Notes: generated by a model from the sequence alone, not told the origin. Shown: positions 1,988-30,040, numbered from the stretch's first letter. The stretch: DNA of 64,000 bases from Candidatus Tenderia sp. (GCA_031416075.1 JANOSY010000073.1:1-64000), one strand, 5' to 3'. A program made the numbers and translations.

Positions 1988-3204
<1,217 letters not shown>

Positions 3205-5492: not shown

Positions 5493-5676
5493 CCCTGTAG
5501 TGTTAGTAAGGAGAACTGCGTCATCCCGATAAAACCACCCATACAAAAATGGTTATCTATTGTCATTTTGGTAGCTCTTTAAGGTAATAACTTGTGATTT
5601 TATAGTAAATATTACCTTTTTTTAGAACTCTCATTGGGTCAGAATAAAGATAGATAATTATTGGAGGGGAGTATTT

Positions 5677-6459
5677 ATGTCATCACATATCAAGAAACTG
5701 GCACCATCTATGAGTTATATGGATGGTGAGTTGCCTCTGTCAGTAAGGATTAATGCCTTGGGTGATATCAGTGAGATATTCAATCATCACGTTGGAAATT
5801 TCTTTCCATACGATTTTTCTGTTATTGGCAAGGCATATTTAAGTGGTAATAGCATCGAGGTTAGTGATGTTTTTTTGCAGCAGGGCGAACTTCACAATAC
5901 ACATACACGTTTAATCACGGACTGTAATTCACTGCTATCTATCTGGAGAGTTATGCGGCAGGTCTGTCTGCTGGACCTAGGCCCATGTGGCTGTATTGGG
6001 AGTTTACGCAATAGTAATACTGACATTAACAAACGAAGCTTTATGGTTCATGGGCACGGCACAGATGAGTTCCACGTTATATTCATTATTCTCAGCACCC
6101 ATCAACGATCTTGTAATAATACTGACAAACAATTTCTTCACGATGTTATGCCTGCTTTAGCACAAACATTAGAACAACTATCTCAGGAGGGTGTAACTGC
6201 CGAAGAAAAACTGATCGCATATGATCAATTGCAGACCTCACAATCTATACCAGAATTAATGTCACCACTATCAGCAAGAGAGATAGAGATAGTCAACTGT
6301 CTTGCTGAGGGAAAGACAAATAAGGAGATTGCCCGAAACCTAGGCACAAGCCCGCACACAGTGAGGAATCAGGTATCTCGTTTATCCCAAAAAGTAGGAG
6401 CACGAAACCGTACCCAAATAGTCTCTTTAACAGCACTTCTCCAACAAAAAAAAATTTAG
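5677..6459 (+). CDS. LuxR-family transcriptional regulator
   Basis: C-terminal LSAREIEIV..LAEGKTNKEIARNLG.SPHTVRNQV HTH; unrecognised N-terminal sensor domain. Confidence 0.85.
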   Translation: MSSHIKKLAPSMSYMDGELPLSVRINALGDISEIFNHHVGNFFPYDFSVIGKAYLSGNSIEVSDVFLQQGELHNTHTRLITDCNSLLSIWRVMRQVCLLDLGPCGCIGSLRNSNTDINKRSFMVHGHGTDEFHVIFIILSTHQRSCNNTDKQFLHDVMPALAQTLEQLSQEGVTAEEKLIAYDQLQTSQSIPELMSPLSAREIEIVNCLAEGKTNKEIARNLGTSPHTVRNQVSRLSQKVGARNRTQIVSLTALLQQKKI

Positions 6460-6502
6460 GATCCATCGAATGAGCTACGACTATTTAAATAACACCCTCA
6501 TT

Positions 6503-7666
6503 TTAGAATCGCCACACCGCTTCCAATTTGATCCGGTCTAGCTCATCAAATGCAGAGGGTTCCGCGTTATGGTTCACATAAAACCAATCTACTTCCGTGC
6601 GCAATTCAAGATTCTTATCCCACTCATAACCTAATTTAAGGGATAACCACTCTTCATCACCACCGATTTGATGCCACCAGAAGAGACGCATATTTCCACG
6701 ATTTTGTAAAAACTTATATTGTGCTAGCAATGAGACATAGCGCTGGGAATAATTTGTCGTATTATATGAACCAGGCGTAGTAGCCTCCCAATAGAGTTGT
6801 GGGCTAAAGAAAAGATGGCCGTACTCCCAATCAAATCCAACAAGCGCTTGCTCTTGGCGTTGTGGTATGTATGAAAAATCCGTATTAAATGTATCCGTTT
6901 CGCTATACACCCATTCAGCACGAATAATTCCCGGCCCTGCGGGCCAATCCGCACTTGCCCCCCATAAATATCGTCGTGCACTACCCATATCAAAATCACC
7001 ATCTGAAAGAGGTTGCCATAACGGTTCATGATTCCAACCATTTAGCCAATACAAACCAAGATCCAGCTCCCCCATCTGACGGCTCAGGCGTGCCCCAGTA
7101 ACCCCATGCATTGATCTACCCTTAGGGGTCTCTAATGAGTGGTTAAAGGCGGGTTGCAATAGTGGAAAGCTCGGATCAACAGCATTGAGGCGTCGGTCAG
7201 GTCCAGCAAATAGCTGCCATTCCCACACACTCACTTGCCCATCCCATTGCACCATCCATAACGGGATTCGGGCATCCGCTGCAACCATATAAAAAGCATC
7301 CGGGTATCGCAATGGATTAACAGTGTCTAACAAGCGAAAAGCATCCGCTCTCCCCCAAGCGATCTGTTGGCGGCCAATCCGTAATGTACTTTGATCAATC
7401 TGCCAGGTTAAATAAGCCTCGCGTAGTTCTATTTCTGAGTTTTCCCCCCAGGGAGTATCTATTGTTTCTGCACGTACACCAATATAGGCCCGGCCTCTAA
7501 GTAGATTCTCCCTCCAGTTCAGACGCAAATCACCACGCCCTGCCATCTCGTTTTTTTTTGCATCAGGATAATAGTCAAGGCCCGTGCGCATCTCAATATT
7601 AGCCTCTGAAGAAAAAGCGTGTGTTGCATATACTGCAATAAATATAACCAAAAACTTTAAAAACAT
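6503..7666 (-). CDS. outer-membrane beta-barrel protein (DUF1302-like)
   Basis: Signal peptide; ELREAYL...LRIGRQQIAWGRAD motif; C-terminal aromatic beta-signal (..WRF). Confidence 0.7.
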   Translation of the reverse strand: MFLKFLVIFIAVYATHAFSSEANIEMRTGLDYYPDAKKNEMAGRGDLRLNWRENLLRGRAYIGVRAETIDTPWGENSEIELREAYLTWQIDQSTLRIGRQQIAWGRADAFRLLDTVNPLRYPDAFYMVAADARIPLWMVQWDGQVSVWEWQLFAGPDRRLNAVDPSFPLLQPAFNHSLETPKGRSMHGVTGARLSRQMGELDLGLYWLNGWNHEPLWQPLSDGDFDMGSARRYLWGASADWPAGPGIIRAEWVYSETDTFNTDFSYIPQRQEQALVGFDWEYGHLFFSPQLYWEATTPGSYNTTNYSQRYVSLLAQYKFLQNRGNMRLFWWHQIGGDEEWLSLKLGYEWDKNLELRTEVDWFYVNHNAEPSAFDELDRIKLEAVWRF

Positions 7667-8434
7667 TTAATCGGCACGTAAATAACGAGAAGAGACGTAA
7701 TAATCGTCAAGCGTAATGTCCAACGCACGCTCTTTTATGGTTAATTGCGTCACTCTTTTATTAACCATATTTTCCATCTTAATCACTTGTGGCCTCCAAT
7801 AATTACCCTCTCTTTTTATGCTACTGGCTGTCAATCTCTTTATTAATTCACCAGAATGGTCAAAATATTCGATAGCAACCGGATATTGAGAGGGTATGTC
7901 AATGTAGTATATCTTTTTAGAATATCCAGATGCTTCACGCTCATGATTATTGTCAGGCTCCGCCAAAATAACAATACACCGGCTATCACCACACGCAGTC
8001 TCTTTTACAATACTGAATTTGTATAAATTAATTTTATAATCTTCAAAATCCTCATGCGTAAACTCTGTCCCCATAAACCAATTTGTTTTTTCACTACCAG
8101 ATACCCGCCTAAATTTACGCGTTGCTGGCAAGTACAACCAAATATCATTGGCCTCCTTATTTCTGTCTTCAATTAACAGCCCCGTACCTTGTAAAATAGG
8201 AGGTGATATAAACTTTATAAGAGAGACCTCTTTGTCTGTCTCATGTTTATAAAAAAATTCCATATCACGCGACTGAACAAGTTTTTTATCTTGGTCAAAA
8301 ATATCCATCTTAAATAAAGATTTCTCTGTCAAACTCTTAGTGGTTTCTTCAGAACGTTCCATTAAATTACGTCCATCTTCTGAAAATGCAGGCATTGATG
8401 ACATTAAAATTAAACACACAATAATTATCTTCAT
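7667..8434 (-). CDS. LolA-like outer-membrane lipoprotein-sorting protein (DUF1329/LolA_like)
   Basis: Signal peptide; F.SP...GTGLL...DIWLYLPATRK.RR.S...FMGTEFT.ED motif. Confidence 0.8.
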   Translation of the reverse strand: MKIIIVCLILMSSMPAFSEDGRNLMERSEETTKSLTEKSLFKMDIFDQDKKLVQSRDMEFFYKHETDKEVSLIKFISPPILQGTGLLIEDRNKEANDIWLYLPATRKFRRVSGSEKTNWFMGTEFTHEDFEDYKINLYKFSIVKETACGDSRCIVILAEPDNNHEREASGYSKKIYYIDIPSQYPVAIEYFDHSGELIKRLTASSIKREGNYWRPQVIKMENMVNKRVTQLTIKERALDITLDDYYVSSRYLRAD

Positions 8435-10779: not shown

Positions 10780-11471
10780 GCTGGCACACATGCGTGAACA
10801 CACCCATCAATCAATGTTAGAGAACGATCTGTATGTCGCGCAATTTCTGGGTTATGGGTAACAATAATCAATGCCGACCCCGCTTTACGGCACTGATCAA
10901 GCAGTACTTTAAGCACCTGCTCTCCAGTATTGGGGTCTAGATTTCCGGTGGGTTCATCAGCCAGAATTAACGGTGAATTCTTCACAATTGCTCGTGCTAT
11001 GGCAACCCTCTGTTGTTGTCCACCAGACAGTTGTGATGGAAATGAGCGCTCATAATTAGACAATCCTACAAGGTCCAGGCTATTTAAGACCTTATCACGG
11101 GCCCCTTTAGGTAATGGTCCAGAGGCATCCAAACCCGTCAGTACATTTTCAAATACAGTTAACGATGAAATTAAGTTATAAAACTGAAATACAAATCCAA
11201 CATTGTGGCGTCGATGGTCGGCTAAGTCTTGTGACTTCATATCAAGAAGCGCCCCATTAATATGCAACGTGCCTGAATCAGCCGTCTCAATTCCACCTAA
11301 GATGCTCAACAATGTTGACTTTCCAGTTCCCGACACACCTAATAACGCAATAGATTCGCCACTAGACATCGATAGATTGACATCTGACAATACCGTAGTT
11401 TCAGTAACCCCCTGAAAGTATGATTTTTTAATTCCGGATGCCTGTATAAATGAAGATGTAGTACCTGTCAT
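10776..11471 (-). CDS. ABC transporter ATP-binding protein (LolD/MacB-like)
   Basis: Walker [42 protein letters not shown]. Confidence 0.95.
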
Positions 11472-11959
11472 GATAGGGACTCATACTGTTCTGTTATCGT
11501 AGAGATAATTTTCCATTCCACACTCACCTTAATATCAATAGCCGGCTTTAGGGATGAGCTAACAGTGCAGTAATTTTGAAAAATGTCCTCACAACGTTGT
11601 CTACGCGGATTATCGACAGTTAAAATAGGCTTAAGTATCACTTCTACACGATTTATTCTGGGATTTCCTTCAGCATTAGGTATAACAACGGCAGTGGCTT
11701 CTGTTTCGATATTGACTATTTTAAGATGCGCACGTCTACTTGTTTCCAGTAAACTTGCACTTAAACAATGAGCCACTGCTGTGGCCAATAGTGCAGGTGT
11801 TGCCGGTCCTGATGCATCTCCTACTGGATCTGGCTCATCAGAAACATAAGGTAATCCATGAGGTTTTTGATCTTCACTGGCCTGGGTAACAAAACGATAA
11901 CGATCCAGATATTTCATTGAAATATCAAACCTTCGCTCTTGTTGATCACGCATTTCCAT
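11468..11959 (-). CDS. OsmC/Ohr-family protein
   Basis: DEP.P.G...GP....LL..AV.HCL and a second Cys in YCTVS.SL. Confidence 0.85.
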   Translation of the reverse strand: MEMRDQQERRFDISMKYLDRYRFVTQASEDQKPHGLPYVSDEPDPVGDASGPATPALLATAVAHCLSASLLETSRRAHLKIVNIETEATAVVIPNAEGNPRINRVEVILKPILTVDNPRRQRCEDIFQNYCTVSSSLKPAIDIKVSVEWKIISTITEQYESLS

Positions 11960-11993
11960 ATATATCTCCTAACAATTCAATATTACTATTCTA

Positions 11994-12680
11994 TTACTCT
12001 GCAACAACTTTCCGTATGAAATTAAATCTATTCTCTAACTTATAACCAATAAAACTAATGATCACACCCACTACAGCAAAACCTGCAGCCATCACTAAAT
12101 AAGAGATTAACATTTTATTTGGATTACGCTCGGCCGCTATCAATCCAGACTGCATTAAATCAATAACACCTACAACATAGATAACAGCTGTATCTTTAAA
12201 AAGAGAAACAGCAAAACTTGCGCTTGCAGGTGTCATTCGACGTAACCCCTGAGGTATCACAACACTAATAAAAACTTGACTCTTTGATAACCCCGTTGCT
12301 TGTGCTGCTTCAACTTCACCTGAAGGTACTGAGGAAAAACCAGCACGAACAATTTCAGCTTGATACGCTGATGAATAGAGTGTTAATGCTATAAATGCAC
12401 TCAATAATGGCGGTATATTGATGCCAATCATGATAGGTAGTAAAAAATGGCACCAGAAGAGCAAAAGTATCAATGGTGTTGATCTTAGTACTTCAATAAA
12501 TGCTGTGGCACAAAAACCGCTTATTCTCCCGCCTGCCATTCTCAATAGTGCAAGCGGAACCGCAAACATGAATCCCATTACAAAACAAGATACTGCTAAT
12601 CCAATATTGATTAGAAGTCCCCCAGGGGGTCCATCCGGCCATCCGCCGATCATCATGAAACTCAACCAATCAAGACTCAT
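11994..12680 (-). CDS. polar amino-acid ABC transporter permease
   Basis: RSTPL...SAYQAEIVRAG...EAA.A.GL...PQ...FKDT motif. Confidence 0.92.
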   Translation of the reverse strand: MSLDWLSFMMIGGWPDGPPGGLLINIGLAVSCFVMGFMFAVPLALLRMAGGRISGFCATAFIEVLRSTPLILLLFWCHFLLPIMIGINIPPLLSAFIALTLYSSAYQAEIVRAGFSSVPSGEVEAAQATGLSKSQVFISVVIPQGLRRMTPASASFAVSLFKDTAVIYVVGVIDLMQSGLIAAERNPNKMLISYLVMAAGFAVVGVIISFIGYKLENRFNFIRKVVAE

Positions 12681-13432
12681 GTTACTGGTACCGATAGAGA
12701 TGGTTTATTGAGTACATCTTTAGTACTGTATCGACATAAATTGAGTCTGTTTTCCATTTTATGTGATACAGAACCCAATATTAAAGAGATGACAATATAA
12801 AAAATAGTTGCTACAAGCGTTGCCTCTAACCCTCTAAAACTTAACGACTCTATCTGCTGTGTTGCCCATGTCAGCTCAGTGACACCAATAACTATACATA
12901 GTGATGAATTTTTAAAATTATGAATGGTTCTATTGGCTAATGCGGGAAGAACAATTCGAATTGCAAGGGGCAATAAACAACATATCCACTGTTGTTTTGA
13001 TGTTAGTCCACAGCTTTTTGCCGCCTCTCTTTCACCAGAAGAGATGGCAAGTACGCCATTTCTTAATATATCTGATACATACGTTCCATTATCGATACTT
13101 AATGCAACTATTCCGGCTAAGAGTGCATAACTTCCCCAGCCATGCAAAATACTGCCTAGTGAATCAGGCAGTATCTCTGGAAAAACAAAATAAAAAAACA
13201 GTATCCAAAAAACTGCCGGGATATGTCGTGCGACGCCGACCCATGCACTGCAGGGCCAGACAAAATATTTCACCGGTGATAGGCGCCCTGAAGCAATAAC
13301 AATGCCTATCAGTATTGATAAAATAGTGCTAAAAAAGGCGATAATAAACGTGTGTGCAACGCCATAAAGTAGATAATCCCGATACTCATGACGGGCAATA
13401 ACAGACCAGTCAAATTCGTATGTAAACTCCAT
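12677..13432 (-). CDS. polar amino-acid ABC transporter permease
   Basis: FDWS..., EAA loop, FKNSSL...IGV.EL. Confidence 0.92.
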   Translation of the reverse strand: MEFTYEFDWSVIARHEYRDYLLYGVAHTFIIAFFSTILSILIGIVIASGRLSPVKYFVWPCSAWVGVARHIPAVFWILFFYFVFPEILPDSLGSILHGWGSYALLAGIVALSIDNGTYVSDILRNGVLAISSGEREAAKSCGLTSKQQWICCLLPLAIRIVLPALANRTIHNFKNSSLCIVIGVTELTWATQQIESLSFRGLEATLVATIFYIVISLILGSVSHKMENRLNLCRYSTKDVLNKPSLSVPVT

Positions 13433-13441
13433 ATTATCTAC

Positions 13442-14182
13442 TTATACCATCTCTAACATCGATGATTGACGTACACTGTTTGCCAATCTTCCCACCCGAT
13501 CAGTCGATTGACAGGCCAGAGTATTACAATCAACTTCAGTTAATGTTCCATTGTTGAGCATGAAAAAACGATTCCCTGTTGCACACGCAAAATCAAGATC
13601 ATGGGTTACCACTATCTGCGCTATATTGAGATCTGCAAGTGATTTAATATTTTCTGATACTTCATCACGTAGACGCCAATCCAGTGCTGATGTAGGCTCG
13701 TCAAATAACATCACATCCGGGGACATGGCTAAACACCTTACAATCGCAATTCTCTGTTTTTCTCCACCAGAAAGGCTGTCTGGATATATATCTTTTCTAT
13801 GAGAAACCGAAAATTTATCCATTAGGTCAATAGCAATATTGATGGCTAATTTTTTAGTCAGTTTTTTCACCCTAATTAGCGGTAATGTTATATTTTCCAG
13901 TGCGGTCAAGTGGGAAAACAGATTGCAATGTTGAAAAACAATACCTACACGTGACCGCAACTCACAAAGATTGATTCCTTCATCATAAAGAGATACTCCA
14001 TCAATCATAATATCCCCGGAGTCGATAACCTCCATTCTATTAATCGTCCTTAATAGTGTTGTTTTGCCACTGCCGCTTGGGCCGCATATCATTGCAACCT
14101 CTCCACGCTGCAATGATAGCGTCACACTATTTAGGATTGTTTTTCCTGAGATTATCTTCCCCACTGATTTCAACTCAATCAT
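13442..14182 (-). CDS. polar amino-acid ABC transporter ATPase (GlnQ-like)
   Basis: GPSGSGKTT, VFQ..NLF.HLTALEN, LSGGEKQR, FDEPTSALD. Confidence 0.95.
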   Translation of the reverse strand: MIELKSVGKIISGKTILNSVTLSLQRGEVAMICGPSGSGKTTLLRTINRMEVIDSGDIMIDGVSLYDEGINLCELRSRVGIVFQHCNLFSHLTALENITLPLIRVKKLTKKLAINIAIDLMDKFSVSHRKDIYPDSLSGGEKQRIAIVRCLAMSPDVMLFDEPTSALDWRLRDEVSENIKSLADLNIAQIVVTHDLDFACATGNRFFMLNNGTLTEVDCNTLACQSTDRVGRLANSVRQSSMLEMV

Positions 14183-14200
14183 TGAAAGCTCCTCGAGTTA

Positions 14201-15073
14201 TTAATCGGGTAATACATAGGCCATATCACCAAACGTATCTGAAGGTAAGCGCGGGCGAGCATTATGTGGCATCGGATAGAGCCCTTTTTCACCAAACCAT
14301 TTCTGGTATATTCTTTCGTAACTACCATCTTTAATCATGTCTTGTAATACAAAGCTCACCGCATCCCGCCATTTACTGTCATTCGGTGGAACACCTATGC
14401 CATAAAGACCTGGACTAAAGCCGGTGCCTACAACCTCAAACTCTGAGGCTGACTCTCCAGCCAATGCCGCTATAATAGGGCTGTCTTGACAAAACACATC
14501 TATCTTCCCTTGCTTTAATGCCAAAATCCCCTCGGCATTTTTTTGAAATGCGATTATCTTTGGTTCTAATTTGCTGTATTTCATGATCTCCTGAGGTGCC
14601 GCTGTATAAGCATTTGACCCCTGATTAACACCAATTTTTTTTCCTGCCAGATCGGATATTTTCTTAAATTCATTTTTTCTCGCATAAAATATCTTGGCCG
14701 TCCAAAGATAAGGTGGTTCAGCATAATCTATCTGCTCTTCACGGCCCCGTGTTTGTGATAGATTTGAAATTGTCATATCAATCTTTCGGTTAGATAGATA
14801 GGCTATCCGTGTCTTATTGTTGACGACAACAAGCTCTACTTTCACACCGAGTTGTTTTCCTATTTCGTTACCTAAATCGACATCGAAACCTGTCCAGTTT
14901 CCTTTTTCGTCAATAAAGTTCATCGGAGGTGTATCATTACCCGTTCCTATGCGAATAGTGTTTGATTTTTTTACTTGATCAAAAATTGATTCTGCATTAA
15001 CAATACTTGAGTTAATCACACAAGAGAAAAGGCCTATAAATAAAGTGTTTTTAAATAGCTGGTTCAATTTCAT
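14201..15073 (-). CDS. polar amino-acid ABC substrate-binding protein (SBP family 3)
   Basis: Signal peptide; PPMNF.D..G...GFDVDL, R...L....ID, G.Y.RIY.KWFG. Confidence 0.92.
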   Translation of the reverse strand: MKLNQLFKNTLFIGLFSCVINSSIVNAESIFDQVKKSNTIRIGTGNDTPPMNFIDEKGNWTGFDVDLGNEIGKQLGVKVELVVVNNKTRIAYLSNRKIDMTISNLSQTRGREEQIDYAEPPYLWTAKIFYARKNEFKKISDLAGKKIGVNQGSNAYTAAPQEIMKYSKLEPKIIAFQKNAEGILALKQGKIDVFCQDSPIIAALAGESASEFEVVGTGFSPGLYGIGVPPNDSKWRDAVSFVLQDMIKDGSYERIYQKWFGEKGLYPMPHNARPRLPSDTFGDMAYVLPD

Positions 15074-16253
15074 AGTGATTTATCTCTTTAATATTATTTT
15101 TCGGAAACTCTTTGCTAAACTTTTCTTTATAAAGAGCCATTTCTTTAGAGTTTTCAATAAATAGATTTTGACATCGCTCTACGCTATCCCCTGTTCCGTT
15201 ATAAAAAACAAGACCTTTTTCTGATAAAGGCCCCATCCACTCTCTGCAAAAATTCCATTGGTGCGTCCCTATTTTTAGATTTACCTGTGCAAACGTAAGG
15301 TATGCACGTTGACGGATATCAATCGATTTAAGATCAACATCCTCAAATTTTGAATAGTAGTGGACACGATGTGGTCTGACTATTTTTATCCACATCTCCC
15401 ATAAATTTCTCATACTTGGCGAACTATTATTGTCTGATACCAAGTTACATATTGATGCATCAGGCAACCAGCGATGCGCATATAAAAATGACTCTTGAAA
15501 CATATCTTGGTGTATTAAATTTAGTGGTTGATTGGGTGCCACAGTATGCATATCTGAATGGTATCTATCAGTCATCAACCGGGCTAATCCCATCCACTGT
15601 TGGTACAATCCGTAACGCTTACCCGAGTATCGACCACTCTCCCAATCGCCGATCAAAATAGAGGGTCTAAGAATCAGATAAGGCAATCCACTCTGGGCAA
15701 CCAACCATTCAGCCTTTCTTTTTGATGATGTGTAAGAAGTTGGGTCTTTTTCGGGGTCATCATGTAATATCTCTTTAACGTCTCCACTAATATAACCAGA
15801 GCTATAGGCTGTAGAAATAAATGTAAAGCGCCGTACCCTCAAACGTTTACCGATAGAGAGCATCCATTTTGTTAATTGGATGTTAACCACGTCCAAATCG
15901 GCTTCATTGAAATAATCCAGGCATCCGGCACAGTGCACTATTTCATCTATCTCATAGGGTGTTAATGCCTCCTCAAAATCATCGTCACCAATGTCACTAC
16001 TACCATTCCAGGGGATAATTTTTACATTACCATAAACACTCTCTAAAGATTCTCCAAATGCTGATAGCTCATTGTTAAGACGAAACAAAAAATTGTCTAT
16101 GGATGATGATGCGCGTAATGGGATAACTATATTCTCTACTCCTGATGACAATAGTTTGGCAGCAATCAGAGTGCCTAGATAACCGCTCCCACCTGTTAGC
16201 AGCACTGTATCTGGACGAAACTCTTTTGACCTTAGGTCATTAATTGTTTTCAT
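15051..16253 (-). CDS. extended SDR oxidoreductase, male-sterility / thioester-reductase (NAD_binding_4) type
   Basis: VLLTGGSGYLG, IVHCAG, F.FISTAY, Y..SK, ILRPSILIGD motifs. Confidence 0.8.
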   Translation of the reverse strand: MKTINDLRSKEFRPDTVLLTGGSGYLGTLIAAKLLSSGVENIVIPLRASSSIDNFLFRLNNELSAFGESLESVYGNVKIIPWNGSSDIGDDDFEEALTPYEIDEIVHCAGCLDYFNEADLDVVNIQLTKWMLSIGKRLRVRRFTFISTAYSSGYISGDVKEILHDDPEKDPTSYTSSKRKAEWLVAQSGLPYLILRPSILIGDWESGRYSGKRYGLYQQWMGLARLMTDRYHSDMHTVAPNQPLNLIHQDMFQESFLYAHRWLPDASICNLVSDNNSSPSMRNLWEMWIKIVRPHRVHYYSKFEDVDLKSIDIRQRAYLTFAQVNLKIGTHQWNFCREWMGPLSEKGLVFYNGTGDSVERCQNLFIENSKEMALYKEKFSKEFPKNNIKEINHYEIEPAI

Positions 16254-16255
16254 CG

Positions 16256-16684
16256 TTACGCCACCTCTTCAGAAGGTAACAATTTCTTTTCAATTTTCTC
16301 TGGCTCTGGAATTCCGCCATAAAATGCAATTTTTCTATTAATAATTAATATAGGAAATATATTAAAACCCTGTGTCGATACAAGGGACTGTATCTGTTCA
16401 ACCAGTCGATGCTCACTTGGTTCAAGATCACCACTCTTTATCTTTGACAGCGCTTTTCTGGCATCTGTAATTGAAATTGTCATCACTGAGATATTGGATC
16501 CGGAATTCTTTAAGGCAATATCAACATTGTTTTTTAGCTTTTCATCACTCTGTGATGCTAATGGGGAGCAACATTTTGCAGAGACAATACCGATCCCGCC
16601 TTCATACATTACGGATCTTAAGTGAATCAGTGCATCCCCACTGTTGCTGTTCCCGCAAAAAAGTTTACATAGCGAATCAAACAT
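16256..16684 (-). CDS. thioredoxin-fold protein with vicinal Cys (ArsD / MTH895-like)
   Basis: KCCSP motif; C-terminal FPILIINRKIAFYGGIP...I.K.L like ArsD and small redox-active disulfide proteins; next to an ArsP-type permease. Confidence 0.6.
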   Translation of the reverse strand: MFDSLCKLFCGNSNSGDALIHLRSVMYEGGIGIVSAKCCSPLASQSDEKLKNNVDIALKNSGSNISVMTISITDARKALSKIKSGDLEPSEHRLVEQIQSLVSTQGFNIFPILIINRKIAFYGGIPEPEKIEKKLLPSEEVA

Positions 16685-16697
16685 ATAACCCTCCATT

Positions 16698-17621
16698 TCA
16701 AAAATTAGGAATTGTCCACTGCGCGAGAAAACCCAATATCACAGCAGCTGTTACTACAGCGACAATATGAGCAACTATTAGTGGCCAACGAAACAGTCTT
16801 AAGAGCAGTATCATTTCAGGCAAGCTTGTTCCTGCACCAGAGATTAACAAGGCAACCAATGGTCCAGGATCCATCCCTTTCTCTATCAGTGCATAGCCGA
16901 TAGGCACAATTGCCATAGGCGATATGTATAGAGGAACAGCAATCAAGGCAACCAGTGGGATCAAGAAGTAGGGAGGAAAAGTATGATCCAGGTCTGTTAG
17001 TATGTTCTCTGGCATATAGCCGTGTATTAACCCGCCAATAATAATGCCTATCACTAGATAAGGCATGATCTGCCGTAATTCCATACGCGCCGCTCCCCAT
17101 GAAAAAGAGAGCGCGGTACGAAATTTTGGGCGAGATACCTCTCCCGTGGAATCCCCCATATAACCTTCTGGAACAGCTACCGTGCCTAAAGGGCGCAGAA
17201 AACGTATCATGCCTGTGCGCTCTACAAGGATGCCGGCTAAAATGGAGAGAAGTGCTGCTGACAAAACAAATATCACAGCACTGCCAAACCCTGGACCACT
17301 GACCAATAATATAATGACACCTTCATTAATCACGGGGGATGAGATCAGAAAAGTAAAACATGAAGCCAAACCAATTTTTGACCTCAACATCCCACTTAGC
17401 ACAGGTACCGTGGAACATGAACAGAAAGGGGTAACGGCCCCACCAATGGCGGCTAATGTTGCGCCGTTCCAAGATGATGCGTTGGCAAGTTTTACCTCTA
17501 TTGAGCGCCCTAACGAAAATTGCTGCGCCAGAAATATCAACATTGATATACCCAAAAACAGTATGACCAACATTAAGCCATCCAAAAGAATGAAATTTAT
17601 AACGTCAACAACTTTATCCAT
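16698..17621 (-). CDS. ArsP/DUF318-family permease
   Basis: TPFCSCSTVP, FLISSPVINE, VPLY, GAGTSLPEM motifs; about 8 TM segments. Confidence 0.88.
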   Translation of the reverse strand: MDKVVDVINFILLDGLMLVILFLGISMLIFLAQQFSLGRSIEVKLANASSWNGATLAAIGGAVTPFCSCSTVPVLSGMLRSKIGLASCFTFLISSPVINEGVIILLVSGPGFGSAVIFVLSAALLSILAGILVERTGMIRFLRPLGTVAVPEGYMGDSTGEVSRPKFRTALSFSWGAARMELRQIMPYLVIGIIIGGLIHGYMPENILTDLDHTFPPYFLIPLVALIAVPLYISPMAIVPIGYALIEKGMDPGPLVALLISGAGTSLPEMILLLRLFRWPLIVAHIVAVVTAAVILGFLAQWTIPNF

Positions 17622-17671
17622 AACAGCGCTCTTGAACAGGTATTGTTTTTTGTATGTTAAAAATTAGATTA

Positions 17672-18523
17672 TTAACAACACGATTCAGTGGTGGCACTGT
17701 TTTTTGTTTGCGCCAAACGTAAATCGGCAGATGGCATTCCACCATAACTGGACATGCTTGCTATCAGTGGTGTTGTGACTTTTACATCAAACCCAACTTC
17801 ATCTAACGTTTCAATATAGGCATCAAGCGCTTCTATACGAATATCTTCGATGTCTGTACGTATGCTATCCAAACCAATATCACCACAATTCACGCCAAGC
17901 TCACCACAAAGAGAGTGGCAGCTGGTGCTAATCATGCTGAAAAGTTCTGGCATGACACGATGGTGTGCCCAGACAAGGCTGTCATGAACACCATCATAGT
18001 CACTGGAGAGCATCTCTTTAAGCCGTCTGATACCGATGCCAAGATGTTCAATTTCATCGCTCAATATGGACTTTGCAAGGTCGCGTGTATCCGGGTCTGT
18101 ATCGCGCTGAAGAATTTTATACAACACAATGGCCATTGTCTCTGTCATCAGGTCTTGAATAATTAGGCATGCGGCCAGATCCTTTTTTGCGACTGCTGCA
18201 GAGAACTGTTTGCGTATATGCAACCACTGAGGTTCGACAATTCGTTGTTCAACAGGAAAGTCGAGTCTGCGCCCAAGGCTGGAGAGCATTTTGATATGTT
18301 TGGTCTCTTCAAAGGCCTGTTTTGCAGTCTCAATTTTTGAGTTGGTATCTTTCCATAAGGGCACCATCTCGGAATAGTTCTCTACAGCCATAATCTCGCC
18401 AGCTACTGCATTTGAGACTATGTAGGCCATCAAGTCATAATATCTTTGGTCTTTACCGTGCCGCTGATTGCGCATCTCTTTGACTTCATTTCTATCCAAT
18501 TCGTTAATATTCACACTATTCAT
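17672..18523 (-). CDS. ferritin-like di-iron protein, aldehyde-deformylating oxygenase (long-chain aldehyde decarbonylase) homolog
   Basis: Ligand set E43, E73xxH76, E128, E157xxH160; GE..A..NY, GR.L, CLIIQ and E..AI..Y motifs shared with cyanobacterial ADO; extra Cys-rich insert and C-terminal CC. Confidence 0.8.
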   Translation of the reverse strand: MNSVNINELDRNEVKEMRNQRHGKDQRYYDLMAYIVSNAVAGEIMAVENYSEMVPLWKDTNSKIETAKQAFEETKHIKMLSSLGRRLDFPVEQRIVEPQWLHIRKQFSAAVAKKDLAACLIIQDLMTETMAIVLYKILQRDTDPDTRDLAKSILSDEIEHLGIGIRRLKEMLSSDYDGVHDSLVWAHHRVMPELFSMISTSCHSLCGELGVNCGDIGLDSIRTDIEDIRIEALDAYIETLDEVGFDVKVTTPLIASMSSYGGMPSADLRLAQTKNSATTESCC

Positions 18524-19027
18524 TTCTCTATCTCCGTTATGGGATGCCTGGAAATGTTGGTTCCCCGATTTTTTTGAGACCCGATAATTTGGGCGTGATA
18601 CATACTCTCATCTGTCAGAGATCTGTTAAATAGTACAAATGTACCCATCTGAATATTTATAGTGCCGCGGACTGATGCTATCGACAAACAACATGATGTT
18701 TGTAAGAGAAGTATGATTTTTTTCAATATTAAACTTTAATCCTTCCAATACCTCCATTGACTTGATAATGATCGCCCTCCTTAACCAAAGAAAATACTTT
18801 ACGGACATTAACTGCCATATGGCCGCTCTCTTCTGGTTTTTTTATCAAACGGGTATTAGTCTCAGCACCACCTATTGCAGCACCAATACCGTGTCACTTA
18901 TGTTTTTTCTCATATGTAGTGGCTGAGGTATATTGGAACTAGCCGCAGTAATCGCGACGACGATAAGATTCCAGTGACCTAACATATTGTATTTATACCT
19001 ATTAATAGTGAATCAAGGTTCTGTTAG

Positions 19028-19061: not shown

Positions 19062-19263
19062 CCTGCTTCAGGTGTCCTAAGGGCTATCGCCTAATGGATG
19101 AAACGGGAAGCCGGTGCGCTCTGGTAATAACCAGCGCTAACCCGGCACTGCCCCCGCAACGGTAAACGAGTTTAAGGTTCTGCTTACGCCACTGTGTTCT
19201 GCACGGGAAGGCGCAAACCTTGGGAAAAGACCCCCACTCGTGAGTCCGGAGACCGGCCTGCGG
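19062..19263 (+). ncRNA. cobalamin riboswitch
   Basis: CAGGTG...AAACGGGAAGCCGGTG...CCGGCACTGCCCCCGCAACGGT...GCCACTG...GGGAAGGC...GAGTCCGGAGACCGGCCTG (B12 box) upstream of btuB. Confidence 0.95.
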
Positions 19264-19407
19264 CATAAGTTCGGCATTGCGGAGGGCGATGCACCGGCAT
19301 GTGTGGCCTATTTTTCACCCCTCCACCCTTGCTATCACTCCTCCTCCATTTGCCATATGGCCTTTAATTATTCAGTTCGTGCCCCGATGTGCACGAAGGA
19401 GAGAGAT

Positions 19408-21237
19408 ATGCAGTTGCGTTCATTGTCAGCAGCGGTAGCGCTGTTGAGTGCCCTTCCCCTTTACTCCGTTACAGCCATTGCTGCGGATGCGGACGCTGTG
19501 ATTGTGACAGCAACACGTACAGCTCAGACCGTTGATGACTCACTTGCATCTGTTAGTGTCATTACTCGTGCTGATATCGAGCGACTTCAGGCCCAATCCT
19601 TACAAGATCTGCTACGTGGTATAGCAGGTATCTCCGTTGCCAATAATGGCGGCGCAGGTAAATACACTGCACTATTTATGCGTGGTACCGAGTCTGACCA
19701 CGTACTGGTTTTGATTGATGGTGTAAAAGTTGGTTCTGCCACCTCAGGCAGCACTGCATTTCAAGACATTCCACTGGCTCAAATAGAACGTATTGAGATT
19801 GTACGTGGACCGCGCTCCAGTCTGTACGGTTCAGAGGCCATTGGCGGTGTGATTCAGATCTTCACCCGTAAAGGAAAAGGCCAGATCACCCCTTCCATGA
19901 GTATTGGCGCTGGCAGTTACGGTACCTACAGCGCCCAGGCGGGTGTCACCGGGGGTAACGATAGTCGCTGGTTCAGTGCCAATCTTAACAGCCTCAATAC
20001 CAAAGGTTTTAATGCCTGTAATGGTTCCGCCATCAGTGGTTGTTATACAGTTGAGCCTGATAAGGATGATTACCACAATGTGGCGGCATCACTGCGTGGT
20101 GGATTCCGTTTTGGCAGCAGTGGTACCGCAGAACTAAATGCTTTACGTAGTGAAAGCGATACATCCTATGATGGATCATTCTCCAATGAGTCATCATCCG
20201 TGCAACAGGTATTGGGTGGCAATGTCAGTTTTGCGGCAGCACCATCCTGGCAGGTAAGTTTGGCGGCAGGCCAGAGCCGTGATATGTCTGATGGATTTAA
20301 GGATGGCAATTTCAAAGGCGATTTTAATACTCGCCGCAAAAGTGCTACCTGGCAGAACGACATCACTGTAAGTGACAACAACCTGTTAACAGTCGGTCTG
20401 GATCGTCAGCTTGATTTTATTGAAAGCACCACAAACTTTGCTGTCACCTCTCGTGGCAACAAGGCTGTTTTTGCTCAGTATCAATCTGCGGTCAGTGATA
20501 CCTTTGATATGCAGCTATCGTTACGTCGTGATAGCAATGAGCAGTTTGGTAATCAGGGCACTGGCGGTGTGGCATTTGGCGCTGATATCGGCCATTCGAT
20601 GCGCGCTACCTACGCCTATGGGACTGCTTTTAAGGCCCCCACCTTTAATGAGCTCTACTATCCTGGATACGGTACTGCCACACTGGTTCCGGAAGATTCG
20701 CGCAATATTGAGGTGGGTTTGGAAGGTAAAACAACACAGGGACACTGGGCTGTTAACCTCTACGAAAACCGCATCAGTAATCTGATTGCCTATGACGCCT
20801 CAATTTTTGCCCCTAACAATCTCGATCAAGCTAACATTCGTGGCATTGAGGCCATCTGTGGTGTTGATATGAACGGTTGGGCCATGAATGCAAACCTGAC
20901 ATTGCTCGATCCTGAGAATCGTGCCAGCGGTAGCAATTACGGCAAAGTACTACCACGCCGTGCTAAAAAATCGTATCGCCTTGATGCTGACCGTGCTTTA
21001 GGTGCGTACCAGGTAGGTGCCAGTTTACGTGCCGAAGGTAGCCGCTATGATGATCTGGCCAATAACCGTCGCCTGGGTGGCTACGCCACTGTTGATCTGC
21101 GCGCCGGTTACGACATCAGCGATGATTGGCAGGTTCAGGCACGGGCTGAAAACCTGCTTGATAAAGGGTATGAGACCGCTGCCTTTTATAACCAGCCAGG
21201 CCGTAGCCTGTTTGTCACACTGCGTTACCAGCCGTAA
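19408..21237 (+). CDS. btuB: TonB-dependent vitamin B12 receptor
   Basis: Signal peptide, TonB box VIVTATR, plug RGTESDHVLVLIDGV, IEIVRGPRSSLYGSEAIGGVI; riboswitch upstream; RBS before ATG 19408. Confidence 0.93.
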   Translation: MQLRSLSAAVALLSALPLYSVTAIAADADAVIVTATRTAQTVDDSLASVSVITRADIERLQAQSLQDLLRGIAGISVANNGGAGKYTALFMRGTESDHVLVLIDGVKVGSATSGSTAFQDIPLAQIERIEIVRGPRSSLYGSEAIGGVIQIFTRKGKGQITPSMSIGAGSYGTYSAQAGVTGGNDSRWFSANLNSLNTKGFNACNGSAISGCYTVEPDKDDYHNVAASLRGGFRFGSSGTAELNALRSESDTSYDGSFSNESSSVQQVLGGNVSFAAAPSWQVSLAAGQSRDMSDGFKDGNFKGDFNTRRKSATWQNDITVSDNNLLTVGLDRQLDFIESTTNFAVTSRGNKAVFAQYQSAVSDTFDMQLSLRRDSNEQFGNQGTGGVAFGADIGHSMRATYAYGTAFKAPTFNELYYPGYGTATLVPEDSRNIEVGLEGKTTQGHWAVNLYENRISNLIAYDASIFAPNNLDQANIRGIEAICGVDMNGWAMNANLTLLDPENRASGSNYGKVLPRRAKKSYRLDADRALGAYQVGASLRAEGSRYDDLANNRRLGGYATVDLRAGYDISDDWQVQARAENLLDKGYETAAFYNQPGRSLFVTLRYQP

Positions 21238-21321
21238 ATATTGGCACAGTACCCTCCTCTGTTTAGGGAGGGTGTTGTGATCACATTGAAACACACTTAC
21301 TTTTAAAACAGGCGCGATACT

Positions 21322-21903
21322 ATGTTAACGCTCTCTACCCGACATCAAATTTTTATTGGTCTGTCGCTATTGTTGTTGATGATCACCACCCGTGGTCACC
21401 ACTTTGCAACACTGGAGCATCTGCCAAGTGCTTCATGGGCGGTGTTTCTGCTGGCGGGACTCTATCTGCGCCCGGTGTGGGTTTTTCCTGCGCTGTTAGC
21501 GTTGGCCGGTTCGCTCGACTATGCAGCGATCACCTGGGGTGGTGTCTCTAATTTTTGCGCCAGCCCGGCGTATCCGATGTTACTGCCCGCCTACGGTTCA
21601 CTCTGGCTGGCGGGGCGCTGGTATGCCAAACAGTACCATGCTCACTGGAGTACACTTGTACCTGCATCGCTGGCCATTTTATTGGGTGCAACGGTGTGTG
21701 AGCTCTTCTCCAGTGGGGGTTTCTATTTTCTATCAGGCCATTTTGTCGATCCAACACTGACTGAGTTTGGGGCGCGGTTTATTCAATATTTTCCCGGTTC
21801 CTTACAATCACTGCTGTTCTACATCACCATCGCTGCTGTGATACATCTGCTGTTGGTATCGATACAGAACATCACTACCAAACATAATAGAACCGGGGGT
21901 TAA
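21322..21903 (+). CDS. btuM: cobalamin uptake membrane protein BtuM (solitary S-component)
   Basis: TR.HH.....LP.ASWAVF.L.G.Y...DY.AITWGGVS.FC.SPAY signature of BtuM. Confidence 0.85.
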   Translation: MLTLSTRHQIFIGLSLLLLMITTRGHHFATLEHLPSASWAVFLLAGLYLRPVWVFPALLALAGSLDYAAITWGGVSNFCASPAYPMLLPAYGSLWLAGRWYAKQYHAHWSTLVPASLAILLGATVCELFSSGGFYFLSGHFVDPTLTEFGARFIQYFPGSLQSLLFYITIAAVIHLLLVSIQNITTKHNRTGG

Positions 21904-21907
21904 TGCC

Positions 21908-22513
21908 ATGGATGACACTGACAAATCCGTACGCCATCGTAACCGTATGCAGCGTAAAAAAGAGGTGGTGGATGCCTCCATCGCCCGTGCTGATCAAGAC
22001 AAAGGGTTACTGCTGGTACTCACGGGCAACGGCAAGGGTAAATCAAGTTCTGCTTTTGGCATGGTGGCGCGTGCCCTTGGGCACGGTATGCAGGTGGGTG
22101 TGGCGCAATTTATCAAAGGGCGCTCTGATACGGGTGAAGAGGCCTTTTTTCGTCAGCAACCCGGTGTGGTGTGGCATGTGCTGGGTGAGGGGTTTACCTG
22201 GGATACACAGAACTTGGAACGTGATATCGAAACGGCCAATCGTGGTTGGAGCATTGTGCGTGAGATATTGCAAGATCCCACCATCGGTCTGGTAGTACTG
22301 GATGAACTCACCTATCCGATCAAATATGGCTGGCTCGATATTGACATGGTATTGAGTGATCTCGCCGCCCGCCCACCTATGCAGCATGTGGTGATCACCG
22401 GTCGCGGTGCAGCCGAGGCGCTCTGTGATGTGGCCGATACGGTGACTGAGCTCGACGATGTAAAACATGCCTTTCGTGCCGGGGTGCGGGCACAAAACGG
22501 GATTGATCTATGA
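21908..22513 (+). CDS. cobO: cob(I)yrinic acid a,c-diamide adenosyltransferase
   Basis: TGNGKGKSSSAFG, QFIKG, GEGFTW, LDEL, ITGR, KHAF. Confidence 0.95.
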   Translation: MDDTDKSVRHRNRMQRKKEVVDASIARADQDKGLLLVLTGNGKGKSSSAFGMVARALGHGMQVGVAQFIKGRSDTGEEAFFRQQPGVVWHVLGEGFTWDTQNLERDIETANRGWSIVREILQDPTIGLVVLDELTYPIKYGWLDIDMVLSDLAARPPMQHVVITGRGAAEALCDVADTVTELDDVKHAFRAGVRAQNGIDL

Positions 22514-23808
22514 GCCAAGGGGAAAGGCAGTGCCCTGCACTGTTTATCTCGGCTCCCGCCTCTGGTCAAGGCAAAACCACTGTCACTGCGGCACTGGCGC
22601 GCTACCATCGCAACAGAGGATGTAAGGTCCGTATCTTTAAAACCGGTCCTGATTTTTTAGATCCGATGATTCTGGAGCAGGCCGCTGGCGCGGCGGTATA
22701 CCCACTGGATCTCTGGATGGGCGGCGCTGACCACTGCCGGGCGCTGCTCTATCATGCAGCGGCTGATGCCGATCTGATTCTGATTGAAGGGGTCATGGGG
22801 CTGTTTGATGGCTCCTCCTCTAGTGCGGATCTGGCACGATTTTTTGGCATTCCCGTTATGGCGGTGATCGATGGTTCAGCCATGGCACAAACCTTTGGTG
22901 CCTTGGCACACGGCCTTGCTACCTATTGTGATGATCTCCCCTTCGCCGGTCTCTTTGCCAACCGGGTTGGCAGTGAAGGCCACTATCAGATGTTGGCCGA
23001 CAGTGTGCGACCACCGCTTACCGCTGTTGGCTGGCTGGCGCATGATGATGAAATCAAACTACCGGAGCGCCACCTCGGTCTGGTGCAGGCAGATGAGGTG
23101 GCTGATCTTGAGTCACGTATCAATCGTGCGGCCGCTGCACTCAACCATGTTCCCGATCAATTGCCACCTGCTGTTACCTTTACCCCTGCCGCTACCCACT
23201 CAAACGTCACTCCATCACTACAAGGAGTGCAGATTGCCGTGGCCAAGGATGCCGCATTTGCTTTTATCTACCACGCCAATCTTGATCTGTTACGTGCTCA
23301 CGGTGCCGAGATAACATTTTTTTCACCCCTGAGTGATACCACACTGCCCGCTGCGGATGCGCTCTATCTGCCCGGCGGTTATCCAGAGTTACACTTAAAT
23401 ACGTTGGCAAGCAATCAACCGATGAAAGTGGCAATCACCCAACACCAGATGGAGCAAAAGCCGATCGTTGCCGAGTGTGGCGGTATGCTCTATCTGCTTA
23501 ACGCACTCACTGCTGTTGATGGTCAACGGGCGACAATGGTTGGATTATTGCCAGGAGAGGCCACTATGCAAAAGTCGCTCTCCAATATTGGTATGCAGAG
23601 TGTGCAACTGCCGGAGGGTGAGTTGCGTGGCCATACCTTCCACCACTCATCAACAACGTCTGAGATGGTGCCTTTGACCCACTCTTTGCCAGCCCGACAT
23701 CACGGCAAGCCGGAGGCTGTTTATCGCAGATCACGGCTGACTGCCTCATATCTGCATCTCTATTTTCCATCCAACCCGGATGCAGCGGTAAAACTGTTTC
23801 AACCATGA
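22510..23808 (+). CDS. cobB: cobyrinate a,c-diamide synthase
   Basis: SGQGKTTVT, FKTGPDFLDP, EGVMGLFDG, LPERHLGL, AECGG, H.FH. Confidence 0.95.
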   Translation: MSQGERQCPALFISAPASGQGKTTVTAALARYHRNRGCKVRIFKTGPDFLDPMILEQAAGAAVYPLDLWMGGADHCRALLYHAAADADLILIEGVMGLFDGSSSSADLARFFGIPVMAVIDGSAMAQTFGALAHGLATYCDDLPFAGLFANRVGSEGHYQMLADSVRPPLTAVGWLAHDDEIKLPERHLGLVQADEVADLESRINRAAAALNHVPDQLPPAVTFTPAATHSNVTPSLQGVQIAVAKDAAFAFIYHANLDLLRAHGAEITFFSPLSDTTLPAADALYLPGGYPELHLNTLASNQPMKVAITQHQMEQKPIVAECGGMLYLLNALTAVDGQRATMVGLLPGEATMQKSLSNIGMQSVQLPEGELRGHTFHHSSTTSEMVPLTHSLPARHHGKPEAVYRRSRLTASYLHLYFPSNPDAAVKLFQP

Positions 23809-28251: not shown

Positions 28252-28321
28252 TACGTTAAACGAGCTAAAACCGCCACAACCCTATAGATAATCGGTGCCG
28301 TGGCGGTGTAAACGGTAATAG

Positions 28322-28828: not shown

Positions 28829-28974
28829 ACACATCTCCTTCAGCACAATTTTAGCCACAAAAATCGTATCATACCAAAGTATCAGGTGTGTAACAGCGGT
28901 TATTAATATCGGTAGTCAGGGGGTATAGCAGAGAGAAAATTCACCATTTGAACCAATTTTATAATCGAAATCAG

Positions 28975-29937: not shown

Positions 29938-30007
29938 GATTAACCTCAACGCATCTATCGTTTTTATTATAAAACTCTAATAAAAACAAATCCCCTCACC
30001 TACAAGG

Positions 30008-30034
30008 TTTTCGGCAACATCGGCAAAGCCTTAA
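30008..30034 (-). promoter_or_regulatory. putative sigma28 (FliA) promoter upstream of the DGC gene
   Basis: Minus strand TTAA-N15-GCCGAAAA versus consensus TAAA-N15-GCCGATAA. Confidence 0.55.
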
Positions 30035-30040
30035 GCCACA

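Follow-up and report, generated by a model that had tools for sequence, protein, structure and literature searches.

The question raised by this locus is what a protein of the ADO type does outside the cyanobacteria, where its gene stands beside that of a reductase other than AAR. The locus lies in a 64,000-nucleotide stretch of DNA from Candidatus Tenderia sp. (GCA_031416075.1 JANOSY010000073.1:1-64000), which was analysed as a whole and is called the window in the following. On the minus strand, the window encodes FER, an ADO-fold diiron-carboxylate protein of 283 amino acids (17672..18523), and a stand-alone thioester-reductase-type SDR of 400 amino acids (15051..16253). An initial annotation of this DNA had proposed that the two form an alternative reductase/deformylase pair, or that the ADO scaffold had been repurposed for other chemistry such as C-As cleavage or N-oxygenation. 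According to the best reading of the data, FER and the SDR form the core of an operon of ~13 kb (~18523-6503) that was gained by horizontal transfer and is complemented by a LuxR-type regulatory gene at 5677-6459. The FER clade is physically tied to arsenic-specific genes, and the cluster may be a microbial route to fat-soluble arsenic compounds. The reading preferred here, an arsenic-coupled fatty-aldehyde pathway making exported lipid-soluble organoarsenicals, is tentative; judged from gene content, conservation, fusions and folds, its probability falls somewhat short of even.

FER, its partner reductase and the fatty-aldehyde pair

The diiron ligands named in the initial annotation, E43, E73-x2-H76, E128 and E157-x2-H160, had been claimed to stand at ADO spacing. 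In the translation and a HMMER alignment to ADO chains, each of them aligned with an ADO ligand position, and the two segments described as CLIIQ and E..AI..Y were read as C119-L-I-I-Q123 and E128-T-M-A-I-V-L-Y135. The ligand pattern E/ExxH/E/ExxH was present in 120/120 top FER homologues. The suggested comparison with Pfam Ald_deCOase (PF11266) gave 71.1 bits (E 1.6e-19) at a gathering score of 28. All 20 PDB sequence matches of FER at E <=1 were ADO chains, with residues 26-261 aligned and 4rc7 as the best match (E 2.7e-13). The AlphaFold2 model showed a mean predicted local distance difference test score (pLDDT) of 89.1. In the Foldseek comparison with the PDB, all matches listed to rank 25 were cyanobacterial ADO (E 2.7e-9 to 2.4e-7, target TM-score 0.82-0.87), and the next fold after ADO was the R2-like oxidase with an E of 4.2e-4. 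ADO was therefore the best match in Pfam, among the PDB sequences and in Foldseek, and not another ferritin-like family, an outcome for which the annotation had allowed. BioE, a ferritin-like oxygenase for biotin, was set aside, as the clusters comprise no biotin-related content.

Judged by its sequence, FER is outside the cyanobacterial ADO equivalog and belongs to a separate, patchily distributed clade. Its score on the NCBIfam ADO equivalog TIGR04059 was 73.4 bits, below the cut-off of 222.65, and a true ADO (P0206, 389 bits on TIGR04059) matched FER at only E 1.3e-5. Common to the FER clade and true ADO are the six ligands as well as Q123, Y135 and C119 (alignment A1). At position 134, FER has a leucine (L134), compared to A134 in the ADO of Prochlorococcus. 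In a quick maximum-likelihood tree, the FER clade stood apart from ADO and a family of ~245 amino acids, with a value of 89 in the Shimodaira-Hasegawa-like approximate likelihood-ratio test (SH-aLRT) and a very long ADO branch. This third ADO-like family (P0148-P0151, P0160-P0167) lies between FER and ADO and is neither one.

More than 500 FER homologues were found. The best 120 are 60-100% identical, originate from Pseudomonas, Lysobacter, Burkholderiales and others, and carry automatic names such as 'long-chain fatty aldehyde decarbonylase'. An exhaustive profile-free search with FER among 1.84 billion representatives resulted in 103 proteins only at E <=0.001. FER is present in Proteobacteria, Acidobacteriota and Actinobacteria-type metagenome bins. 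The clade is rare and patchy, with 3 of 400 sampled genomes of the class, including the window's own genome and one of the same genus. The plasmid collection contained no FER homologue, and in the own genome no Ald_deCOase gene was found besides FER. The label 'long-chain fatty aldehyde decarbonylase' also appears in metagenomic work on hydrocarbon production, there for a Flavobacteriaceae contig (PMC10176705).

For the gene neighbourhoods, 32 genomic and 36 metagenomic loci were compared by tblastn with defined queries. The 59 loci with FER fell into 42 groups at 90% FER identity, 30 of which measure at least 8 kb and are referred to as large loci. Type A, to which the window belongs, occurs in Chromatiaceae and Burkholderiales and has its genes arranged exactly as in the window. 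In type B, found in Pseudomonas, Lysobacter-type and other organisms, FER-ArsP-p146-SDR-u379-LuxR is joined by genes for a PstSCAB-like importer, which are oriented divergently, for an acyl-CoA-ligase-type protein and for an outer-membrane protein, as well as by an MMPL::LolA_like fusion. Type C is known from Acidobacteriota, sphingomonads and Entotheonella and reads FER2-FER-SDR-ACP-FAAL-desaturase, with a lipoxygenase, a PHO4 transporter, a CobW GTPase and two ABC1 kinases as frequent companions. A contig labelled as a Synechococcus metagenome-assembled genome (L018:1-20765) carries a complete Pseudomonas-type cluster, whose FER shares 79% identity with its Pseudomonas counterpart, which points to a binning error or a recent transfer.

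The initial annotation had also placed a NAD_binding_4 reductase three genes downstream of FER. This was borne out, since the SDR (16253-15051) is the third gene after FER, with the genes at 17621..16698 and 16696..16256 in between. Its motifs were found as named, with TGGSGYLG at 20-27, YxxxK as Y174-x3-K178 and RPSI from R196 on. Across 28 SDR family members, TGGSGYLG, S147/T148 and Y174-x3-K178 are invariant or nearly so. The score on Pfam NAD_binding_4 (PF07993) was 70.5 bits compared to a threshold of 20.1 (E 1.6e-19), that on TIGR01746 was 70.3 bits and thus below the cut-off of 213.35, and the best PDB matches were the terminal reductase domains of MxaA and AusA. In place of the 'NNAG' of classical SDRs, the family shows the motif H107-C108-A-G-C111, of which H107, A109 and C111 are invariant and C108 and G110 occur in at least 90% of the members; C361 is invariant as well. 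These residues may form a covalent acyl-enzyme or thiol-ligand site. Cyanobacterial AAR proceeds through a covalent acyl-cysteine step, and by analogy the H-C-A-G-C motif could serve a ping-pong mechanism in a stand-alone enzyme.

The window SDR has no carrier domain in cis, and no ACP gene follows it in the window. Among the 42 non-redundant loci, a free-standing ACP gene after the SDR was found in six and an acyl-activating ligase in 14. The SDR is adjacent to FER in 30/30 non-redundant loci of at least 8 kb, and the 9/42 groups without SDR are all contigs of <4 kb. In the acidobacterial, sphingomonad and Entotheonella loci, an ACP (PP-binding, 40.8 bits) and a fatty acyl-AMP ligase (FAAL; 510 bits on the model, cut-off 600) come directly after FER-SDR, an arrangement known as the standard fatty-aldehyde route of FAAL, ACP and thioester reductase. 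Pseudomonas-type loci contain an acyl-CoA-ligase-type gene, of which the window's own genome has no orthologue but weak generic matches only. Since the SDR adjoins FER in 30/30 loci and ACP and FAAL follow in the acidobacterial and sphingomonad loci, the assignment of FER and SDR as an aldehyde-consuming and aldehyde-forming pair is well supported by gene context. The alternative reductase/deformylase pair of the initial annotation is accordingly a fair description of the core, based on this adjacency and on ACP and FAAL, and the annotation's interpretation as a whole is partly supported.

A physical contact of the two proteins received weak support from structure prediction. The FER-SDR complex scored 0.51 (best of three controls 0.00), with at least 70% contact agreement between the runs and a partner pLDDT of at least 86. 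The benchmark mark was reached by 58/80 solved complexes and 2/110 mismatched pairs, but at scores <=0.60 by just 7 of the 80 complexes and by both passing mismatches.

Arsenic-related genes, thiol sites and exporters

The tie to arsenic is most direct in the long homologues. All 20 homologues of >496 amino acids are Methyltransf_31::Ald_deCOase fusions, i.e. ArsM::FER, and NCBI lists one of them under the name arsenite methyltransferase. On the arsenite methyltransferase model, P0123 reached 281.7 bits at a cut-off of 263, followed by P0124 with 245 and P0127 with 214 bits. Of the 20 fusions, 19, 19 and 18 contain the three Cys motifs of ArsM, respectively. Since on L037 only the SDR follows the fusion, ArsM, FER and SDR are a minimal set. 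In L046, L008 and L009, an arsM-type gene (240.6 bits in L046) replaces ArsP and p146 between FER and SDR. A ubiquinone-type pathway, composed of a Coq7-like diiron enzyme, UbiB kinases and a UbiE-like methyltransferase, was rejected, because the fused methyltransferase showed 281.7 bits on the ArsM model compared to 53 on the best UbiE-type model (NF001244).

The type B protein u379 is a degenerate ArsM relative, with 60.3 bits on the arsinothricin ArsM model and without the GxGxG motif; a single-sequence search against the PDB gave nothing useful. It ends with Gly-Cys-Cys, and exactly the clusters with u379 have a FER without the Cys-Cys tail, so that this tail sits either on FER or on u379.

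Genes of arsenic oxidation and reduction were also found in or beside the clusters. The aioB and aioA genes, which exceeded the NCBIfam cut-offs by far, stand between u379 and LuxR in L025, follow PstSCAB in L048 and are located close to the cluster in L029, and in L050 aioBA was found by tblastn between cluster genes, with 65% identity to the AioA of L025. An ArsI/CadI gene (166 bits vs 116) and ArsC-like genes adjoin L030, L002, L006, L043 and L068. For the ArsC-like gene of L002, the closest relative of the window cluster, 14 of 15 PDB matches were arsenate reductases, with a top match named low-molecular-weight phosphatase family protein. In the fetched DNA, arsM, aioA, arsC-like or arsI genes are present in 12/42 non-redundant loci, a number that rises to 20/42 when the degenerate ArsM-like u379 is counted as well. 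Two unrelated kinds of phosphate/arsenate-type importers occur in 15/30 large loci (PstSCAB in 11, PHO4 in 4). The window's own genome has a true arsM on another contig (348.6 bits).

The two genes between FER and SDR show a further relation to arsenic systems. The permease (16698..17621, minus strand, 307 amino acids) reached 136.4 bits on Pfam ArsP_1 (PF03773; threshold 32.3), whereas its best NCBIfam matches, a Cu/Zn efflux family with 78.9 bits and SaoE with 75.2 bits, were weak and far below the cut-offs. It is present in 20/30 large loci, and the residues of its vicinal pair C67-x-C69 (TPFCSCS), which belongs to a transmembrane helix, are invariant in 30/30 distinct family members from the loci. 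Like the ArsP of ars operons it keeps a vicinal Cys pair, and in Campylobacter ArsP this pair is reportedly needed for transport.

The second protein, p146 (16256..16696, minus strand, 146 amino acids), is a small, putatively thioredoxin-fold, ArsD-like protein. No Pfam match exceeded its threshold; ArsD (PF06953) reached 12.5 bits compared to 27, with an E of 0.0016 for the best family member, and 15/19 members showed weak Thioredoxin_3 and ArsD matches. In alignment A2, S-A-x-C-C, F-P and Y-G-G-x-P are invariant, including the Cys pair C42-C43, which the model (pLDDT 82.8) places just after the first strand. The top six PDB fold matches were all ArsD, though weak (E 4.5e-3 to 2.3e-2, target TM-score 0.53-0.63), while the p146 profile found only spurious RNase H matches among the PDB sequences (E >0.02). 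ArsD is thus the nearest solved fold, though by weak matches, and p146 may share its vicinal Cys pair. In contrast to ArsD, p146 has no ArsA partner and lacks the third nearby Cys that ArsD is said to use.

FER itself carries thiol sites. Alignment A1 revealed an insertion after helix 176-199 which is absent from ADO and contains the triad C202-x3-C206-x6-C213. This triad was found in 120/120 top homologues, in 20/20 long fusion forms and in 63/65 FER-type open reading frames of the loci. At its C-terminus, the window FER ends with C282-C283, and such a Cys-Cys tail is present in 90/120 top homologues.

An export function is indicated by the distal genes of the operon. The window encodes, on the minus strand, a MacB/LolCDE-type exporter composed of an ABC ATPase (11471-10776) and a 790-residue FtsX/MacB_PCD permease (10803-8431), both assigned by profile matches, followed by a periplasmic LolA_like/DUF1329 lipid-carrier-type protein (7667..8434; LolA_like 152.6 bits) and a DUF1302-like putative outer-membrane protein (6503..7666; 37 bits vs 23.2). 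The arrangement of a MacB-type ATPase, an FtsX permease, a LolA_like periplasmic protein and an outer-membrane protein resembles LolCDE/LolA, although it does not represent the housekeeping Lol system, as its scores miss the LolC/LolE cut-offs by a wide margin. A LolA_like carrier occurs in 18/30 large loci, together with MacB/FtsX or MMPL, and in Pseudomonas-type clusters the LolA_like domain is fused to an MMPL transporter (HpnN-type) that takes the place of the Lol-like set. Since two unrelated lipid pumps each come with a LolA_like carrier, the product is probably membrane-soluble and exported. In one window-type cluster (L010:17537-20033), a cytochrome P450 and a fatty acid desaturase occupy the usual place of the MacB/FtsX/LolA exporter.

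The LuxR/GerE-type regulator (5677..6459, plus strand, assigned by profile matches) adjoins the far end of the operon and reads toward it. Its N-terminal domain, which matched no Pfam family, contains C83 and C104-x-C106. C104 and C106 are present in 21/21 and C83 in 20/21 distinct cluster-linked homologues, and based on this conservation the regulator is a candidate arsenical sensor of a new type.

Compared to the cyanobacterial AAR-ADO system (TIGR04059; PDB 4rc5, 2oc5; AAR-ADO complex 6jzu), the ferritin-like fold, the six ligands, the Q123/Y135 positions and the encoding of an aldehyde-making reductase beside the aldehyde-consuming enzyme are the same. On the other hand, FER shows only ~23-26% identity to ADO and forms its own clade, its reductase is a NAD_binding_4 SDR and not AAR, it carries the inserted Cys triad and the Cys-Cys tail that ADO lacks, and its clusters add ArsP-type, ArsD-like, ArsM, phosphate-importer and lipid-export genes. 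The ADO fold and the two-step logic are known; novelty lies in the partner reductase, the added thiols, the systematic link with arsenic genes and the presence of dedicated exporters.

The proposed pathway and its alternatives

These observations can be combined in the following pathway. In the first step, the SDR would reduce a fatty acyl thioester, either acyl-ACP or acyl-CoA, to a fatty aldehyde, for which the gene context gives strong support. FER would then activate O2 and cleave the aldehyde between C1 and C2 as ADO does, as its fold, ligands and second-shell residues indicate. The third step is speculative: a trivalent arsenical, supplied by the ArsP-type permease and the ArsD-like p146 and methylated by ArsM where present, might be held by the triad C202/C206/C213 and the flexible C282-C283 tail, and the alkyl fragment might be placed onto arsenic instead of hydrogen, resulting in a lipid-soluble alkyl-arsenical of the kind found among arsenic-containing hydrocarbons. 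Such a thiol presentation can be likened to mercuric reductase, whose C-terminal Cys pair shuttles Hg(II). The product would presumably leave the inner membrane via the MacB/FtsX pump, the LolA-like carrier and the DUF1302-like protein, and the three-Cys LuxR-type regulator might sense the arsenical.

In the most specific form of this pathway, FER would form a long-chain alkyl-As bond by adding a C15/C17 alkyl radical, derived from a C16/C18 aldehyde, to a thiol-bound trivalent (methyl)arsenical. This step has to be regarded as doubtful. Its products would be dimethylarsinoyl-alkanes of the AsHC332/AsHC360 type or, in the absence of ArsM, unmethylated alkyl-arsenicals, followed by Lol-like export. 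Known arsenic-containing hydrocarbons comprise C15 and C17 alkyl groups, AsHC332 being a C15 alkyl on dimethylarsinoyl, and these lengths are the ones expected if C16 and C18 aldehydes lose one carbon in an ADO-type reaction. To our knowledge, no gene has been assigned to the C-As bond of arsenic-containing hydrocarbons.

For other organoarsenicals, C-As bond formation is known: ArsL (arsinothricin) acts by radical addition to As(III), and ArsS (arsenosugars) does likewise. The FER clusters resemble these systems in that an ArsM-type enzyme is combined with a second enzyme which puts a carbon group on trivalent arsenic, as proposed for FER, and in that a permease gene belongs to the cluster. 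They differ in the radical source, which for ArsL and ArsS is radical S-adenosylmethionine (SAM) chemistry on SAM and for FER would be a candidate O2-dependent diiron site acting on a fatty aldehyde. Moreover, the FER product would be expected to be a lipid and not an amino acid or sugar. The formation of the C-As bond with trivalent arsenic by ArsL is reported in a preprint (bioRxiv 10.1101/2024.02.01.577332).

Arsenic-containing hydrocarbons and fatty acids occur widely in the marine environment and in seafood and are assessed by food-safety bodies (European Food Safety Authority, EFSA 2024). In the passages of the EFSA 2024 risk assessment on arsenolipids that were covered, none on biosynthesis was found, and a statement in another source calls the arsenolipid pathways still unknown (PMC11009773). 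According to the part of one study concerned with it, AsHC332 (m/z 333.2139) was present in all surface-ocean samples, and bacteria were raised there as an overlooked source. Our literature search, for which subscription journals were mostly out of reach so that prior publication is possible, found neither a paper connecting ADO-like proteins to arsenic nor a description of this cluster. The clade offers a clonable candidate set of two or three genes (ArsM, FER, SDR) with harmless, cultivable soil hosts, which would open the genetic origin of arsenolipids to ordinary experiments. If the bond-forming step were true, bacteria would be a source of widespread toxic seafood arsenolipids, and diiron-oxygenase chemistry would be extended to element-carbon bond formation.

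Several observations weigh against an arsenic-coupled pathway. The window's own operon contains no arsM, arsC, arsI or aio gene, and its arsenic-type features are only the ArsP-type permease, the ArsD-like protein and the Cys motifs. Of these, the permease belongs to a family that also includes Cu/Zn transporters, and p146 lies below the Pfam threshold for ArsD with a weak fold match. The ~245-residue ADO-like family has the motif CX3CX2CX5-8C, possibly an Fe-S or Zn site, at the place of the triad, and for this reason the FER triad may also be an Fe-S or Zn site. Since the insertion follows helix 176-199, the model places the triad at a pole of the bundle, separated from the ligand layer by about half the length of a helix. 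In five other type A genomes, arsM above the cut-off was found in 0/5, so that methylation by ArsM cannot be obligatory, and the own genome contains neither aioA above the cut-off nor acr3. Where tested, the ArsC-like genes were below the NCBIfam cut-off (123 vs 174). Window-type clusters encode an amino-acid-type importer and OsmC and not a phosphate importer, and neither of the two is explained by the proposed pathway. The CobW GTPases of type C would fit a role as metal-cofactor chaperones equally well. Finally, we know of no report of arsenic-containing hydrocarbons from these bacterial genera.

The main alternative is a plain hydrocarbon pathway, which we consider unlikely. SDR and FER would then be a non-cyanobacterial analogue of AAR and ADO producing alkanes or alkenes from fatty acyl thioesters for Lol-like or MMPL transport to the outer membrane. 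The triad would bind Fe-S or Zn and serve electron entry or stability, and the ArsP-like permease and p146, or CobW, would be metal-cofactor chaperones. The arsenic and phosphate genes would be accounted for by a co-regulated remodelling of the envelope in response to arsenic or phosphate stress. The conservation of the ADO fold, ligands and second-shell residues and the biosynthetic ACP-FAAL-SDR logic are in agreement with this explanation. The same holds true for the desaturases, lipoxygenase and P450 of some loci, the CobW-type GTPases in 5/42 loci, the four-Cys motif of the ~245-residue family, the Cu/Zn transporters among the ArsP_1 relatives and the absence of arsM from 5/5 other window-type genomes. 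However, it leaves unexplained why an ArsM-type methyltransferase is the sole fusion partner found (20/20 longer homologues), why arsM can stand in place of ArsP and p146, why the Cys-Cys tail switches between FER and an ArsM-like protein, and why aioBA lies between cluster genes in L025 and L050. Even if arsenic is not the acceptor, the result would be a non-cyanobacterial ADO-type enzyme with a partner reductase of a new kind and a dedicated envelope exporter, and 'long-chain fatty aldehyde decarbonylase' would be a putative name only for the hundreds of proteobacterial proteins that carry it.

The ArsM fusions, the ArsP-type permease with the ArsD-like protein, the arsI, arsC-like and aioBA genes nearby and the thiol motifs could also be explained by arsenic detoxification without a lipid product. 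In this case, the substrates of FER would be trivalent methylarsenicals from ArsM, to be oxidised or dealkylated in a manner comparable to ArsH/ArsV or by C-As cleavage, with the SDR as redox support. This has little probability, because a detoxifying oxidase would need neither a thioester-reductase-type SDR as invariant partner, together with ACP (6/42) and an acyl-activating ligase (14/42), nor lipid exporters (18/30 large loci), nor the ADO-specific second-shell residues that FER retains. The same reasoning bears on the repurposed scaffold of the initial annotation. Its choice of arsenic was apt in view of the ArsM fusions and the arsenic neighbourhoods, but the acyl-activating genes, the ArsM fusion and the lipid exporters give a biosynthetic context, and FER would therefore make or modify a lipid-type organoarsenical rather than cleave C-As bonds. 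For N-oxygenation, no support was found. The formation of an alkyl-thiol or alkyl-phosphonate, with S or P as the acceptor, was considered as well and found no support.

The genes could further be read in the opposite direction, as uptake and breakdown of environmental arsenolipids or other lipids: LolA-like and DUF1302 proteins would import, ligase and SDR would activate and reduce, FER would shorten the chain and ArsP would expel the arsenical. In Pseudomonas and in marine hydrocarbon degraders, DUF1302/DUF1329 proteins are tied to growth on hydrophobic substrates, and an efflux permease of the ArsP type is present. Nonetheless, this is very improbable, as MacB/FtsX and MMPL (HAE3, HpnN-like) pumps are exporters by family, the FAAL-ACP-reductase arrangement is biosynthetic, an ArsM fusion would be senseless for degradation and the clusters contain no beta-oxidation genes. 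Least probable of all is the same machinery acting on another soft metal or metalloid (Sb, Se, Te, Cu, Zn), for which the Cu/Zn-annotated members and selenoprotein variants among the ArsM-family and ArsP_1/CobW relatives and the sulfate permease match of the PHO4 protein could be cited, since the neighbouring aioBA, arsC-like and arsI genes are arsenic-specific and the PstSCAB-type importers fit arsenate or phosphate.

The low-GC island and its remaining genes

The composition profile of the window showed a low-GC island of ~39-43% GC at ~4,000-19,000, compared to ~47-55% GC in the flanks. Inside the island, 13 minus-strand genes follow each other head to tail with little or no spacing. Since no conserved genes were found upstream of FER in window-type loci, FER is the first gene of the operon; a promoter and terminator scan upstream of FER gave results no better than shuffles.

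Between the SDR and the exporter, the operon encodes an ABC importer, assigned by profile matches and composed of a periplasmic SBP_bac_3 binding protein of the polar-amino-acid type (14201..15073), an ATPase (14182-13442) and two permeases (13432-12677 and 12680-11994), followed by an OsmC/Ohr-like thiol peroxidase-type protein (11468..11959; Pfam OsmC 32.7 bits vs 27.5), all on the minus strand. The SBP_bac_3 gene is kept in 11/30 large loci, which corresponds to the window architecture, and the same number was determined for the OsmC gene.

At the left edge of the island, an IS3 transposase (2392-3204) and a DUF4874/DUF4832 protein (3705-5492) are encoded, neither of which is conserved with the cluster elsewhere. 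To the right of the island, btuB, a small membrane protein and cob (cobalamin) genes were found at 19240-24464. The composition profile also showed a second low-GC stretch of ~39-46% GC at 28000-42000.

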